Source: Longimicrobiales bacterium (GTDB lineage: Bacteria; Gemmatimonadota; Gemmatimonadetes; Longimicrobiales; Gaopeijiaceae). Taken from it: a stretch of 64,000 nucleotides of DNA. Where the stretch lies: assembly GCA_963664435.2 (NCBI GenBank), contig CAXXKM010000001.1, positions 928,001 to 992,000 of the forward strand. Direction: 5' to 3'. The stretch's first letter is position 1; each line of letters begins with the position of its first letter. The notes below the pieces were generated by a model. That model was given only the letters and a program-made list of their open reading frames with translations, searched no databases and was not told the DNA's origin. Both the position numbers and the translations under genes were made by a program. Positions 33,497-41,385 of this stretch are shown here, piece by piece.

Positions 33497-34549
33497 TCAG
33501 GCCTGAGAAGGTTTGCGAGCCAGAAAACAGTACAGCGGCGTGAAGATACCCGTCTTGCCGCCCGCAACATACGCCTCCGCGGTCCGATCGAGGAGCCGGA
33601 CGACTTCCGCCGAGCCATTCGGAAAGATCCGCAGCAGCTCGGCCAGCTTCGATCCCGCGATGATCGCCTTGCGGCCCCACGGAAGCCTTCTCAAGGCGTT
33701 CCCCAACGTCCCGTGGCGACTCTCCATGGGCTGATACCAGGGCGTGGAGGGTCCCTCCTGTACGTCCCAGTCCCTTCCCTCGATGACTTGAAATCCCGCG
33801 GCTTCGAGCGCGTGATTCACTTCCTCGAACGTGGCGATGTCGTGCAGCGCGATACCGCGCATGAGATCCTGCTTGACGGCCCGGTGCCGACCGTCGTTCG
33901 GATCGAACCGGTCCGTAAGACACATTTCCTGACCCCAGAACAGGGCACCCGGTTTCAGCACGCGGAATATCTCCGCGAAGGCACGCTGCTTGTCCTGCGC
34001 ATGGCATGTTGACTCTATGGCGTAACCCCGGTCGAAGGTGTCGTCCTCGATGGCGCTCATGTCCATGAAGCTGCACCCTATCAAGTCCACCAGGTGTTCG
34101 AGCCCCGCCTCGGCGTTCAACTTCTTCGCTTGCGCCAGCTGGACCTCATTGATGTTGATACCCACGACCCTGGCGCCGGTCTCGCGGACGACGCGGCGCA
34201 TGGGGCCGCCGATCCCGCAACCAACGTCGACCACCGTCATGCCCTGTTCCAACTCCAGCTCGGCGATCATCGCGCGCTGGTGCCGGACCTTGGATTCCTT
34301 CAGACTTTCATGAGGCGTAAGGGGCGCGAAATGCAGGGATTCACCCCAACCCCACACCATGAAGCCGTTGCACAGCTCGTAGTATTCCCTGACCGTTTCC
34401 GCGTGGTCGTAGCCGCCGGCGTCTCCGGTCTCCGGCACCGCCCGGTCGACCCAGCCGTTGAAGTATCGCACGCGACGCGCGACGCCCGATCCGCGGTACG
34501 CGTCCCTCAGCGCTTTCGACAGTTCGCCCAGTCGGATTCGGTGCCTCAA
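33497..34549 (-). CDS. Sterol C-24 methyltransferase-like protein (ERG6/SMT family)
   Basis: Region I YY...WGWGESLHFA, SAM motif VDVGCGIGGPMR, YAIESTCHA, IFRVLKPG, and Sterol_MT_C end GGKTGIFTPLYCFLARKP. The TTG start overlaps the P450 stop codon. Confidence 0.9.
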   Translation of the reverse strand: MRHRIRLGELSKALRDAYRGSGVARRVRYFNGWVDRAVPETGDAGGYDHAETVREYYELCNGFMVWGWGESLHFAPLTPHESLKESKVRHQRAMIAELELEQGMTVVDVGCGIGGPMRRVVRETGARVVGININEVQLAQAKKLNAEAGLEHLVDLIGCSFMDMSAIEDDTFDRGYAIESTCHAQDKQRAFAEIFRVLKPGALFWGQEMCLTDRFDPNDGRHRAVKQDLMRGIALHDIATFEEVNHALEAAGFQVIEGRDWDVQEGPSTPWYQPMESRHGTLGNALRRLPWGRKAIIAGSKLAELLRIFPNGSAEVVRLLDRTAEAYVAGGKTGIFTPLYCFLARKPSQA

Positions 34550-36597
34550 GCGGGCAGCTCACGCCGCTGCTCCGTGATGCGGAACTTCAGCTTCTTGCTG
34601 GGCTTCATCGACGGAAACGGATTGAATTGGAGCTTCCGCGCGTACTTCGCCGGCGACACCTCAATCGTGAAGTGATGCGCCAGCATCAGCAGGTTGACCG
34701 TCAGGTGCATCTCCATCCACCGCGTGCCGAGACACCTGTGCGTGCCCAGCCCGTACGGGGCGAACCCGAGGCTGTCATACTTCTTGCGCGACGGCAGGAA
34801 GCGGTCGATGTCGAACTTGTGGGGCTCGGGAAAGACGTCGCTCATGTAATGCGTGGCGGTCATGGCGATGTGGATCCGTTCCCCCAGGGGCAGCTCGTGG
34901 TTCTCGACCACGCAGGTATTCATCACGTTGCGAACCGACATGGTCACGATCGGGTACATGCGCAGGCACTCCATGAGGAAGCGGTGCGTCACGTCGATGT
35001 TGGCGGGGGTGAAATCCTCCTTCCCGGGATCGCCGTTGGCGAACAGGGCATCCGCTTCGGATTGGATCCTGGCGTACAGGTCCGGCTGCGACGCCATGGC
35101 GTAGACCATGAGGCTGAACGTATCGCCGAGGTACACGCTGGCAATCAAGGCTGCGGAAAAAGAGAAGAGCAGGTTGGACTCCGGGAGAAACTGCGGGTCG
35201 CTCGCGTGCAGGCTGAGATAATCGTCCACCAGGTTCCGCGGGCCGTCCGCCCGTTGGCCGGGCGTGTTGACCTGCAACACCCGTTCCATCAGGGTGTCCA
35301 GGGCCTTCGCCCGGCGTTTCATGCCCGGGGTATTCAGCGTGAACCTGGGCAGGAGTCGGGCGATATGCACGCTCAGGGCCCGTTCCTTGTACGTCATCAG
35401 GTCGTCCATGAGATCTTGCGTATCGACGCCGATGAACAGCGGTGAAAGCTGGGCGTTGACGAACGCCCGGGACATGGACGTGGCGCGGTAGGAATCCCCA
35501 ACCGTCAAGCTCGCCATGTATGCGCGGCCCCTGTCGTAGAGCTGATCCATCTGCCCTGCCAGCCTCGCCTGGGAATAGGCCGGCGCCAGGAACTTGCGAA
35601 GCCGGAAGTGATCGGCGCCGTCCAGGGCGGGAAGGACGCCGGCCGCACCGTACACCTTCTCGAAATCGCTGAAGTAGTCCCTGGTTCTCAGGTGCTGCCG
35701 CCCCTGCTTGTGCACCCAGCGGTTCGTTTCGAGTCCGGCCAGGAAGATCAGGGGCTTCGAGAAGGGAGGGCGGACACTGAACACCGGGCCGTATTCCTCC
35801 GCGAGGTGCCCGAATAAGGCGTTCAGGTTGCCGTCCCGAATATGCGGGTTGGCCAGTAGCTTGCGCAGCGGAACCGTCGGAATCTTCTTGGAAAGAGCGG
35901 AATGTCTGCGGATTGGGCCGACGAGATTCCGAGAGACCGCATCGGCAATGGACCGGCCGATCAAGTCCATCTGGCAGACGAACTTGATGCGCTCCTCCGC
36001 CTTCTCATCGAGTTCAAAAATCAGGCGAAAGACGTCGCACGTATTGACGAGGCATACGATGACGACGTCTCTGGGGTCGGGAATCTGGTCGGTGAAGAGG
36101 ACCTTGCCGATCCGCGCCTTGATGAACCGGTCGGGCGTGCCTTCCGCAGACATCCCGTACTGTTGCCCATGCAGGACGGTGGGGGACAGCGTCCAGAATT
36201 CGCCTTCGTGGTGTTGGAGGATATCCCGTTCAACCAGGCGCGCCAGAGTAATATCGATGACCGACTCCGCACGGGACGCGAGCCGTTCGATCCAGTACCG
36301 GGCAGTGTGCTGTTCCGGTGCGTCCACGATTTCCCGCAGGAAGGGGTCCAGGACGGGATCGCCCGTTTCGGCCGGGTCCACGGCGAACAGGGATGTCAGG
36401 TCCGAGTCGAGCCGCGACCGGAAGGAGAGTTCCGCCAGCACTCCGCCGACGACGGCGCAGTTCAGTTGCCAGCCGGGTACCTGATGGAAGTAGCCGCCCT
36501 TCTCGTCGAGAAGCATCAGGATGAGTTCGTCGACCAGGCTCAGGGGTTCACCCGTCGAACTTTCCGCCGTCTCCGCCGTTTTTGCCCTGTCAGTCAT
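34546..36597 (-). CDS. GPP34/GOLPH3-like domain fused to cytochrome P450
   Basis: N-terminal about 230 aa: LSLVDELILMLLD...GGVLAEL...TGDPVLD...LARLVERDIL (GPP34-like). C-terminus: ECLR (ExxR), FDIDRF and heme motif PYGLGTHRCLG. Start set at ATG 36597. Confidence 0.85.
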   Translation of the reverse strand: MTDRAKTAETAESSTGEPLSLVDELILMLLDEKGGYFHQVPGWQLNCAVVGGVLAELSFRSRLDSDLTSLFAVDPAETGDPVLDPFLREIVDAPEQHTARYWIERLASRAESVIDITLARLVERDILQHHEGEFWTLSPTVLHGQQYGMSAEGTPDRFIKARIGKVLFTDQIPDPRDVVIVCLVNTCDVFRLIFELDEKAEERIKFVCQMDLIGRSIADAVSRNLVGPIRRHSALSKKIPTVPLRKLLANPHIRDGNLNALFGHLAEEYGPVFSVRPPFSKPLIFLAGLETNRWVHKQGRQHLRTRDYFSDFEKVYGAAGVLPALDGADHFRLRKFLAPAYSQARLAGQMDQLYDRGRAYMASLTVGDSYRATSMSRAFVNAQLSPLFIGVDTQDLMDDLMTYKERALSVHIARLLPRFTLNTPGMKRRAKALDTLMERVLQVNTPGQRADGPRNLVDDYLSLHASDPQFLPESNLLFSFSAALIASVYLGDTFSLMVYAMASQPDLYARIQSEADALFANGDPGKEDFTPANIDVTHRFLMECLRMYPIVTMSVRNVMNTCVVENHELPLGERIHIAMTATHYMSDVFPEPHKFDIDRFLPSRKKYDSLGFAPYGLGTHRCLGTRWMEMHLTVNLLMLAHHFTIEVSPAKYARKLQFNPFPSMKPSKKLKFRITEQRRELPA

Positions 36598-40254: not shown

Positions 40255-41385
40255 TCATGTGCCGTTCCCCTCCGGCAGGTGCCCGGATGCAGCGCGACCC
40301 GTCCACTGGCGGCGTGGACTCCCCCCTGTCTCCAGATCTGCTTCCGGATAGAACTGTCGGCTATAGAGGCGGTATTTTCCGATAGGGCCGTCGGCCCGGC
40401 ACAGACGCGGAGGAGACTGGTAGCGCTTTCGCTCCCAGATGACCACGTCCTGCGCGACGAACCGCCTCTCCTCGGAAATCAGAACGCGGTTCATCAGCCT
40501 GTTGCGGAACTTCCTCGGCAGGAAGCCGAGACCGACGAAGTAGCGCCCGGGCCTCGGGACCTCCCGCGCCTGGCTGACGAGCGTCAGCTCGACGAACTCG
40601 CCGTCGACGGGGGTCGAGAGGACCCACAGCCTCGAGTCCATGCCGATCGTCTTCTCGTGAACCTCGACGAACGAGTATCCCAGGCCATGGACATGGGTGA
40701 CGGCCGATACCTCGGACTCGATGCTGATGAGCTTCGCGATGGTGCGGACGTTTTTGAAATCGAAGCAGCTCTTCAGATATGCGCCGTCGATCGAAAACGC
40801 CGTCGGCTCCACGTCGTGGTAGCCGTGCGTGTACTCCAGGTGCTCTACGTCCACGGAGTTCTCGGCGGTCTCCTGCGGATGGCCGCGGAACCGCATGGTG
40901 GCGAATCGCAGCCCGCTCCAGTCGGCCCCCGTAGGCGGCTCCTCCGGCAGGTCCCACTGCGGGGGGCGCCCGCCTACCCCGTACCACGCGAAAACCATGC
41001 CGAGGATCTCCCTGGTCTCGTAAAGCTTCAGCTTCGCAGCCCTGGGCGCGGGGGCGTTGGGCGTGGCGACGCACTGGCCGGTGGTGTCGAAGGTGAACCC
41101 GTGGAAGGGACACACCAGGCAGCCGTCCCGGACGGTACCGCCGGCCGCCGGCCCCAGGTGTGAGCCCAGGTGGGGGCAGAATGCCTCGGCCACGCAGATG
41201 CGGCCGCCGTCGTCGCACCAGGCGACGATCTCCTCGCCCATCCAGGTCTTCTCGATAAGCTTCTCTTTCCGCAGGGTCTCGCGGGTCGCGATGAAGTACC
41301 ATCCCTCCGGGAACGGAGGGAGTCGGTCGACGCGTCCCGGGATGCGGCCATTGGCATTCCTGACGCCATTGCTATTCCCGATCAT
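40255..41385 (-). CDS. Rieske non-heme iron oxygenase, KshA/Neverland(DAF-36)-like steroid oxygenase or desaturase
   Basis: FPEGWY, Rieske motif CPHLG...CPFHG, mononuclear Fe motif ENSVDVEHLEYTH, and C-terminal QDVVIWERKRY...PRLCRADGPIGKYR...QFY. Confidence 0.88.
   Translation of the reverse strand: MIGNSNGVRNANGRIPGRVDRLPPFPEGWYFIATRETLRKEKLIEKTWMGEEIVAWCDDGGRICVAEAFCPHLGSHLGPAAGGTVRDGCLVCPFHGFTFDTTGQCVATPNAPAPRAAKLKLYETREILGMVFAWYGVGGRPPQWDLPEEPPTGADWSGLRFATMRFRGHPQETAENSVDVEHLEYTHGYHDVEPTAFSIDGAYLKSCFDFKNVRTIAKLISIESEVSAVTHVHGLGYSFVEVHEKTIGMDSRLWVLSTPVDGEFVELTLVSQAREVPRPGRYFVGLGFLPRKFRNRLMNRVLISEERRFVAQDVVIWERKRYQSPPRLCRADGPIGKYRLYSRQFYPEADLETGGSPRRQWTGRAASGHLPEGNGT

Follow-up and report, generated by a model that had tools for sequence, protein, structure and literature searches.

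The window analysed here, a 64,000-nucleotide stretch of contig CAXXKM010000001.1 from a Longimicrobiales bacterium, carries four adjacent genes encoding a Rieske oxygenase, a permease of the RND superfamily, a fusion of a GPP34 domain to a cytochrome P450, and a divergent enzyme of the sterol methyltransferase (SMT) family. Relatives of these genes are linked in genomes of several phyla, the linked set is horizontally mobile across them, and all four genes are under purifying selection. On balance, we consider the set to be a mobile, selected module for lipid tailoring and export in sponge symbionts, which most likely acts on sterols from outside and includes a non-standard methylation.

The original prediction described four adjacent minus-strand genes, and all four open reading frames (ORFs) were found intact where it had placed them, with the expected domains. 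The Rieske oxygenase (40255..41385, 376 amino acids) is of the KshA/Neverland type and matches PF00355 and PF19298 (KshA_C), E 5e-24. It is followed on the minus strand by an AcrB-type RND permease (36848..40081, 1077 amino acids; ACR_tran PF00873, E 4e-158), the GPP34-P450 fusion (34546..36597, 683 amino acids from its ATG; GPP34 PF05719, E 5e-28, and p450 PF00067, E 8e-35) and the divergent SMT-family enzyme, which we term type A (33497..34549; PF08241, E 3e-18, and Sterol_MT_C PF08498, E 8e-16). Profile scans of the 28 window ORFs revealed no gene for sterol synthesis or ring degradation, in agreement with the original prediction.

Linkage, transfer and selection

Linkage was examined in a scan of GTDB genomes, in which module neighbours were counted within 8 kb of the P450 for the best 76 of 304 P450 relatives. 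The counts use our own gene calls, include short contigs as well as kin that are not independent, and are given without a statistical test. By our grouping, the 76 loci fall under six phylum-level labels, namely Gemmatimonadota (19), Latescibacterota (15), Chloroflexota (31), Binatia/Desulfobacterota-like (5), Bacteroidota (1) and Acidobacteriota (1), with four unlabelled. An SMT is found near the P450 in 62 of them (type A in 61) and is the very next gene in 57; 65 have a Rieske gene, 70 an RND-superfamily transporter, and 51 combine all three. The four families thus stay neighbours across phyla, as the original prediction would have it. Flanks and gene order vary between phyla, and on these grounds we rejected chance adjacency and plain synteny as explanations.

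Three different families occupy the transporter slot: AcrB-type permeases (37 loci), Chloroflexota MMPL proteins with sterol-sensing-domain matches (28) and Binatia MMPL proteins (5). A membrane-fusion protein lies beside the AcrB-type transporter in 23/76 loci and an outer-membrane factor in 13/76. A fifth module gene, encoding a FAD flavoprotein, is present in 41 loci and is located elsewhere in the source genome. Less frequent companions are an ERG4/24 reductase (7/76), a canonical SMT (4/76) and an MpaB/Lcp-type oxygenase (3/76). Eight Chloroflexota loci (L098, L104, L109, L112, L116, L119, L121 and L067) have an MFS transporter and an LppX/LprAFG lipoprotein beside the module, which is a lipid-export pairing.

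The distribution of the module among near relatives is patchy. The fusion was found in 4 of 98 genera in a sample of 201 genomes of the phylum. Within the genus, nine genomes, including the source, hold all four genes within 20 kb, and four congeners that are 96-100% complete showed none of the SMT, P450, Rieske and flavoprotein genes. Five congeners carry a Chloroflexota-like P450 (63-64% identity) and SMT (69-70%) at the same chromosomal site (identities are for four of them) and keep the window-type Rieske gene at 87-88% identity; the P450 and SMT were therefore exchanged as a pair. The P450 of the window has a dS of 0.13 to a Bacteroidota-labelled (Rhodothermales) copy and of 0.25 to the congener G014. 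The module is thus horizontally mobile across phyla. All four genes are under purifying selection, with dN/dS of 0.13-0.39 in 14/14 pairs, which rules out pseudogene decay. Reads from 4 of 6 DNA samples gave fragmented contigs with many variants, a hint of similar copies in other organisms.

Two observations bear on the habitat of the carriers. The closest labelled relatives of the source genome (4.5 Mb, 96% complete) are metagenome-assembled genomes of Longimicrobiales/Gemmatimonadota, one of them named Candidatus Palauibacter irciniicola, from which we infer an association with sponges. In a second set of loci, anchored on the SMT and consisting of the best 80 of 91 metagenome matches, at least 35 contigs bear project prefixes listed by Brown et al. 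for sponge metagenomes.

The four genes form a module rather than a conserved four-gene operon. The latter is ruled out by the orientation of the Rieske gene, which is opposite to that of the P450 in 64 of the 65 loci holding both; the same-strand run in the window is therefore a local rearrangement. A frameshifted 120-bp relic of an RND permease (33364..33482, plus strand), 87.5% identical to window positions 39271-39390, is colinear with the intact RND gene that follows a spondin gene in G014, and marks the former RND position before the RND-P450-SMT block was inverted or replaced. The arrangement is not an assembly artefact, because a metagenome contig (L140) that is 99% identical has the same gene order and relic. 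The spondin-type gene itself adjoins the module in the window (32069-33355, plus strand), encodes a protein with Ig-like and Spondin_N domains and a lipoprotein-like N-terminus, and moves with the rearrangements in congeners.

The TTGA overlap of P450 stop and SMT start at 34546-34549, on which the original prediction based translational coupling, is present in the sequence. Two SMT starts are candidates, the TTG at 34549, which overlaps the P450 stop, and the ATC at 34537-34535, which is the site of the ancestral ATG. At the start position conserved among homologues, 60 of 80 aligned rows have ATG and 7 have ATC or ATA, each of these 7 with an in-frame TTG 12-15 bases upstream. Coupling is plausible, but because the ancestral ATG position reads ATC in the window and the in-frame TTG occurs in the ATC/ATA rows, it would be a derived state. 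Adjacency and overlap thus hold as described, with the coupling derived and the shared orientation local rather than conserved.

The GC content of the locus is 62.5-66%, compared to 67-72% in most flanking windows and 68% genome-wide, and the GC3 values of the four genes lie at the 8th-26th percentile of 1899 genes. A promoter and terminator scan gave one promoter-like and five terminator-like sites, not above shuffled sequence. A second region of lower GC (47743-63272) encodes a 1358-amino-acid ORF lacking a Pfam match, an AAA/DUF4143 ATPase, a Sel1-repeat protein, and a run of C5 DNA methylase, HATPase and Z1-domain genes; it resembles a restriction or defence island.

The type-A methyltransferase

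Rice SMT1, grass SMT2 and Cladosporium ERG6 clusters are among the 150 best 50%-cluster representatives from the SMT search, and SMT motifs are present in nearly all of those that are full-length; 114 of the 150 were kept for tree building by length. In an IQ-TREE analysis of 36 rows, 31 SMT rows separate from 5 non-sterol outgroups with support of 92/98, under a long-branch warning for the outgroups. The window enzyme thus groups with sterol rather than non-sterol methyltransferases, as the original prediction expected. Type A is a single clade inside the SMT group (100/100), to which the tree assigns no definite position within the group. The window enzyme is 32-43% identical to fungal ERG6 and plant SMT1/SMT2, with 32% to a fungal ERG6.

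Residue numbers below follow the yeast numbering of a preprint (2025.12.19.695621), with W225 and a few neighbours placed partly by offset. The substitutions Y81M, F89L, Y223Q and W225M each occur in 70 of 70 type-A rows and E82V in 68/70; E82 is replaced in 69 and T78 is kept in only 2. By comparison, type-B SMTs have the canonical residues at 78, 79, 81, 82, 89 and 223 in 9/9. Type A keeps the SAM motif, H90, E195, G217, W286 and the C-terminal motif, together with W85, F91 and an aromatic residue at 83. According to the preprint (2025.12.19.695621), 25 residues, including T78 and F89, are conserved in all functional SMTs; the window enzyme has kept 23 of them, with T78 replaced by N and F89 by L. 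We also considered a propylating (24-isopropyl) SMT, which is recognised by Gly249 together with a Phe at 81, at 83 or at both; 69/70 type-A rows have Ile at 249 and the window enzyme has M81 and W83, so this identity was rejected. The methyltransferase is thus a separate SMT clade whose sterol pocket, to judge from these residues, is remodelled.

A close relative of the window enzyme appears to have been assayed already. Brown et al. describe an Aplysina aerophoba contig with two SMT genes one gene apart, gene 11 (42% identical to ERG6) and gene 9 (35%), followed by SE/OSC (squalene epoxidase/oxidosqualene cyclase), CYP51, ERG24, sdmA and sdmB (PMC10070321). They report two of ten symbiont SMTs as inactive, and their cluster figure marks the inactive ones (PMC10070321). 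The metagenome locus L171 has the same gene order as that contig, and the residues given for Ap_sym_SMT, Gly at 225 and Phe at both 81 and 83, are found in the canonical SMT of the locus. Gene 9 of Brown et al. is therefore very probably the type-A enzyme of L171, and the loss of T78 and F89 should place it with the inactive SMTs. The window enzyme is 77.6% identical to the L171 type-A enzyme and 43% to the L171 canonical SMT. Very probably, then, a member of the clade 77.6% identical to the window enzyme was assayed and was inactive on desmosterol and 24-methylenecholesterol. For this identification we rely on gene order and residue numbering; among the best 80 of 91 type-A metagenome loci, no contig name listed as tested by Brown et al. 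occurs.

Because the clade is conserved across phyla, it would appear that type A works on something other than the standard C-24 substrates. Canonical and type-A SMTs lie side by side in L060, L062, L065, L145 and L170/L171, and their joint retention suggests different jobs. The label of sterol C-24 methyltransferase in the original prediction is accordingly not upheld: two of 25 conserved residues are missing, the pocket is changed throughout the clade, and a close member was very probably inactive on the standard substrates. The type-A enzyme is probably not the usual C-24 methyltransferase, and complementation of yeast erg6, proposed earlier as an assay, would likely fail even if the pathway is a sterol pathway.

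An ordinary ERG6-like C-24 methyltransferase, acting on common delta-24 sterols inside a sterol-tailoring module, would nevertheless agree with the 23 of 25 functional-SMT residues kept, with the 32-43% identity to fungal and plant enzymes, and with the placement of the window enzyme inside the SMT group, and poor expression can explain negative lysate assays. Such an enzyme seems improbable to us in view of the Region I/IV aromatics, which are lost invariantly over 70 sequences, the retention of canonical and type-A enzymes side by side, and the presumed inactivity of the 78%-identical member. As a separate observation, a genome from another genus of the family (G035, L031:3547-4581) has a type-A SMT inserted alone between two genes that we take, from their sequences, to be rpoC and rpsL.

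Partner enzymes, sterol supply and substrate

The best solved relatives of the Rieske protein are KshA enzymes (E 5e-22), and an Atlas cluster auto-named cholesterol 7-desaturase matches it with a score of 0.96. Both the Rieske-cluster motif and the mononuclear-iron (2-His-1-Asp) motif are present in 60/60 Rieske homologues. The best 120 of 1754 matches to the Rieske protein are all close relatives, with no Neverland sequence among them. Domains and iron ligands place the protein in the KshA/Neverland type, for which steroid chemistry is predicted. The match to the SdmA family is weak (33.8 bits, cut-off 600), and an SdmA identity was rejected on this score.

The RND permease of the window matches AcrB/OqxB/MexB-type pumps in the PDB. 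It is AcrB-type rather than BstA or HpnN, and the MMPL proteins that replace it elsewhere fall well short of the cut-offs for BstA and HpnN. Neither a membrane-fusion nor an outer-membrane partner lies beside the permease; homologues are encoded in trans at C3:998481-1004344. The original prediction spoke of tailoring and trafficking of pre-formed sterols. Tailoring is the reading we favour; because RND and MmpL proteins belong to exporter families, the trafficking is most likely export and not uptake. An RND paralogue (51% identity) lies beside an MpaB/Lcp-type oxygenase elsewhere in the genome (L004, C3:1538654-1543353), and the same oxygenase is found inside the module locus of five congeners.

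In the GPP34-P450 the ExxR motif is kept in 76/76 rows and the heme cysteine (window residue 622) in 75/76, with one gap. The acid/threonine pair of the I-helix is absent from 75/76 rows, the exception being a distant paralogue in the source genome. The nearest solved P450s by sequence, CYP725A4 and CYP51, are weak matches (E about 1e-17), an Atlas search with the P450 domain yielded generic P450 clusters only, and a fold search with a structural model (pLDDT 64, both domains folded) retrieved CYP51 at 18-20% identity. Because the model falls below pLDDT 50 in parts of the substrate-binding region, the fold search confirms a P450 fold and nothing further. An identity as the CYP51 sterol 14-alpha-demethylase was rejected, as identity is about 18-20% and the canonical I-helix threonine is lacking. 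Some P450s lack this threonine, and a parallel with CYP61/CYP710 suggests that the GPP34-P450 may perform a desaturation. The paralogue just mentioned (C1:882879-884876, 31% identity, canonical I-helix) lies between a DUF3179 gene and an acyltransferase; a short GPP34-only gene is located at C1:73723-74376. In the congener G005 (L028:7014-9073) separate GPP34 and P450 ORFs, about 40% identical and in opposite orientation, occupy the slot of the fusion between RND and SMT.

The GPP34 domain aligns weakly with GOLPH3 (E 0.014), and the GOLPH3 arginine that we take to be part of the phosphatidylinositol 4-phosphate (PI4P) pocket aligns to valine in that alignment. The N-terminus of the fusion is polar, with no signal-like segment ahead of GPP34. 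For these two reasons GPP34 is more likely a membrane or lipid tether than a secreted effector. We regard as very improbable the alternative that GPP34-P450 is a secreted PI4P-binding effector blocking phagosome maturation (PMC11706023), with its neighbours as co-mobilised cargo sharing no pathway. It would fit the report that GPP34-P450 fusions come from sponge symbionts only and are expressed in a sponge (PMC11706023), as well as the paralogue of the source genome, which has no sterol-type neighbours. The polar N-terminus and the valine speak against it, and the paired replacement of P450 and SMT and three independent transporter recruitments point to a pathway instead.

The source genome appears unable to supply its own sterol. 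Targeted profile searches gave no match to PF13243 (squalene-hopene/oxidosqualene cyclase) or PF08491 (squalene epoxidase), and none to TIGR03213 (HsaC-type dioxygenase). No KstD was found, the sole full-length PF00890 (FAD_binding_2) protein being located in an sdh operon, and the 3 of 5 PF08028 matches inspected are ordinary acyl-CoA dehydrogenase-like proteins. The absence of synthesis and ring-degradation genes seen in the window thus extends, for oxidosqualene cyclase (OSC), squalene epoxidase, KstD and HsaC, to the genome. Because neither KstD nor HsaC was found (KshB and HsaD were not searched), we do not assign the genes to the 9,10-seco catabolic pathway. A de novo cyclase-containing sterol gene cluster (CSG) was likewise rejected, with OSC and squalene epoxidase absent and one unlinked ERG4/24 gene present. 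A lone gene of the squalene/phytoene synthase family (C1:1259199-1260245) has no evident carotenoid or cyclase neighbours.

Two likely accessory enzymes are encoded away from the window. The unlinked ERG4/ERG24-family reductase (C1:1131741-1132880; L042:9742-10881, plus strand) matches the bacterial delta-14 reductase 4quv with E 5e-35, and is 68-81% identical to the copies in seven module loci and 32% to the ERG24 of de novo clusters. The stand-alone flavoprotein (C3:615376-616776; L137:5377-6777, plus strand), 84% identical to the copy in L085, adjoins toxin-antitoxin-like and insertion-sequence-like genes and was found in 10 of 19 congeners, each of which also carries the Rieske gene.

OSC was searched for in 50 of the 76 carriers: one genome has a true OSC (730 bits, OSC motif), 17 have lower-scoring cyclases, and in 32 none was found. 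The 17 genomes are Chloroflexota-labelled, with scores of 158-279 bits, and the 11 cyclases inspected are hopene-type with a DxDD motif; for these carriers the substrate may be a hopanoid. In the one OSC genome (G075), the GPP34-P450 and an MMPL gene directly follow SE/OSC. In L170 and L171, apparently from one organism, a Rieske fragment, a type-A SMT and a GPP34-P450 directly follow a de novo cluster of sdmA-ERG24-CYP51-SE/OSC-canonical SMT, in which sdmA, ERG24 and CYP51 are named by similarity, sequence and order. Of all the findings, this adjacency to de novo clusters argues most strongly that the substrate is a sterol, which would usually come from outside.

In the sterol-tailoring reading that we favour, the host, or co-symbionts that carry de novo clusters, would provide a sterol that partitions into the membrane. 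The Rieske enzyme would desaturate or hydroxylate ring B/C in a Neverland- or KshA-like manner, and the GPP34-P450, tethered to membrane or lipid by GPP34 and lacking the normal proton-relay pair, would perform an atypical oxidation, most plausibly a side-chain desaturation. The type-A SMT would transfer a methyl group from S-adenosylmethionine onto a double bond that differs from the simple delta-24 bond in desmosterol or 24-methylenecholesterol; the likeliest acceptors would be a terminal delta-25 olefin, giving C-26 extension, or a sterol previously altered by the P450 or flavoprotein. The RND/MmpL transporter would clear the product from the inner membrane, and accessory steps would probably be provided by the flavoprotein and the ERG4/ERG24-type reductase. 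A more specific proposal, which we hold only tentatively and think somewhat unlikely, is that type A is a sterol C-26 chain-extending methyltransferase. Many symbionts unable to make sterols would then turn delta-25 sterols, such as epicodisterol and epiclerosterol made by canonical symbiont SMTs, into exported 26-methyl "sponge" sterols. The presence of type-A genes in hosts with other major sterols speaks against it.

Within the same sterol-tailoring frame, type A might instead methylate ring A of 3-oxo steroids, as in nematodes. The flavoprotein would make the 3-oxo group, type A would resemble 4-SMT/STRM-1, the Rieske enzyme would be DAF-36-like, and the P450 would oxidise the side chain to yield a hormone-like exported steroid. 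Nematode 4-SMT has no Region I aromatics, needs 3-oxo sterols and works beside DAF-36 (PMC6997595), and the nearest solved Rieske, KshA, is a 3-ketosteroid enzyme. However, the identity of 4-SMT to Erg6p is only 21% (PMC6997595), as against 32% between type A and a fungal ERG6; type A has kept W85, H90, F91 and an aromatic at 83, which fits olefin/carbocation chemistry; and the flavoprotein is missing from 35/76 loci. We consider this scheme doubtful.

A substrate other than a sterol, such as an unsaturated fatty acid, an acyclic isoprenoid or a host terpenoid, is unlikely in our view, although it accounts for a number of the findings. The module would then make a symbiont lipid or serve detoxification followed by pump-out, the sterol-like ancestry of its parts being historical. 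The remodelled SMT pocket and presumed inactivity on two sterols, the relation of the flavoprotein to LkcE and 2b9w, the MpaB/Lcp-type oxygenase in the locus of five congeners and in 3/76 loci, the AcrB-type pump and the failure to find OSC in 49/50 carriers all agree with it. On the other side, two lineages have the module right beside de novo sterol clusters, ERG4/24 reductases as well as canonical SMTs are co-located with it, the MMPL transporters have sterol-sensing-domain matches, and steroid enzymes are the nearest characterised relatives of three of the four core genes.

Several points count against the sterol-tailoring reading as a whole. Its chemistry is predicted from gene sequences. 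The inactivity attributed to type A on two sterols fits a non-sterol substrate too, the resemblance of the P450 to CYP51 is weak and barely above that to other P450s, and no Rieske or P450 reductase is linked at the locus. The closest solved relatives of the flavoprotein, the amine oxidase LkcE and the 424-amino-acid 2b9w "putative aminooxidase", are not sterol enzymes; 2b9w is presumably a fatty-acid double-bond isomerase. Partial OSC-like matches in 3/19 congeners imply that some relatives may make their own sterol. As to linkage, the best P450-anchored loci include the kin noted above, flanking unrelated genes are conserved too among congeners, and type-A SMTs are often found without the rest of the module. 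Among 40 SMT-anchored metagenome loci of at least 12 kb, 18 have a P450 (counted at 45% identity or more), 18 a Rieske gene, 23 either of these, 19 a transporter and 10 all four genes.

Significance and known systems

A full-text literature search, with subscription papers and Brown's 2023 thesis outside its scope, yielded no account of the module and none of a gene for a C-26 methyltransferase; the former accords with the original prediction that the combination is undescribed. Already published are bacterial SMTs (PMC10070321), de novo sterol clusters of sponge symbionts (PMC9531527) and the GPP34-P450 fusion (PMC11706023). Whether the sponge or the symbiont holds the SMTs for side-chain alkylation and elongation is stated to be an open question (PMC12541326). 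The module brings to this question an SMT clade that is conserved and under selection and that probably gave a negative result in the standard assay, and it names partner enzymes likely to make or use the substrate of that clade. It is relevant to which organisms produce the unusual sponge sterols that serve as fossil markers, and it provides a biochemical alternative to the effector hypothesis for the GPP34-P450, which occurs in most sponge-symbiont phyla. Were the C-26 proposal true, bacteria would account for part of the aplysterol- and 26-methylstigmastane-type skeletons, and the GPP34-P450 would represent a new class of sterol-oxidising P450. If the substrate is not a sterol, the module is still an unexplained lipid pathway common to sponge microbiomes.

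The SMTs of Brown et al. (PMC10070321; 10.64898/2025.12.19.695621) belong to the same family and the same kind of host, and L170/L171 matches their A. aerophoba cluster. The window enzyme, however, falls in the other, divergent clade, lacks T78, F89 and G249, and travels with GPP34-P450, Rieske and transporter genes, partners absent from the available text of those papers. The CSG of Ircinia symbionts (ERG24-CYP51-OSC flanked by SMT or FDFT1) is also horizontally transferred, under purifying selection and present in many sponge-symbiont phyla (PMC9531527), and it sometimes physically adjoins the module. It is a de novo operon with a cyclase, whereas the module has no cyclase, epoxidase, CYP51 or SdmAB, and no OSC was found in 49/50 carriers.

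GPP34_L (PMC11706023) shares the GPP34-P450 architecture and occurs in 92.6% of 54 symbiotic Gemmatimonadota in that paper's table. Its authors propose a PI4P-binding effector, and the words sterol, methyltransferase and lipid appear 0 times in the main text (PMC11706023). Here, by contrast, one subfamily with an atypical I-helix is placed in a lipid-tailoring module. KshA and Neverland/DAF-36 share the Rieske and KshA_C domains and the iron ligands with the window Rieske; unlike KshA, the latter has no KshB-type reductase in its locus, and no KstD or HsaC was found in its genome. The closest likeness in overall design, at the level of families, is the nematode pathway (DAF-36, HSD/DHS-16, STRM-1/4-SMT), in which a sterol auxotroph alters dietary sterol by means of a Rieske desaturase and a re-purposed SMT homologue (PMC6997595). 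Type A stands far nearer to the 24-SMTs than does 4-SMT, and the module, in contrast to the nematode pathway, is bacterial, clustered, mobile and linked to an exporter.

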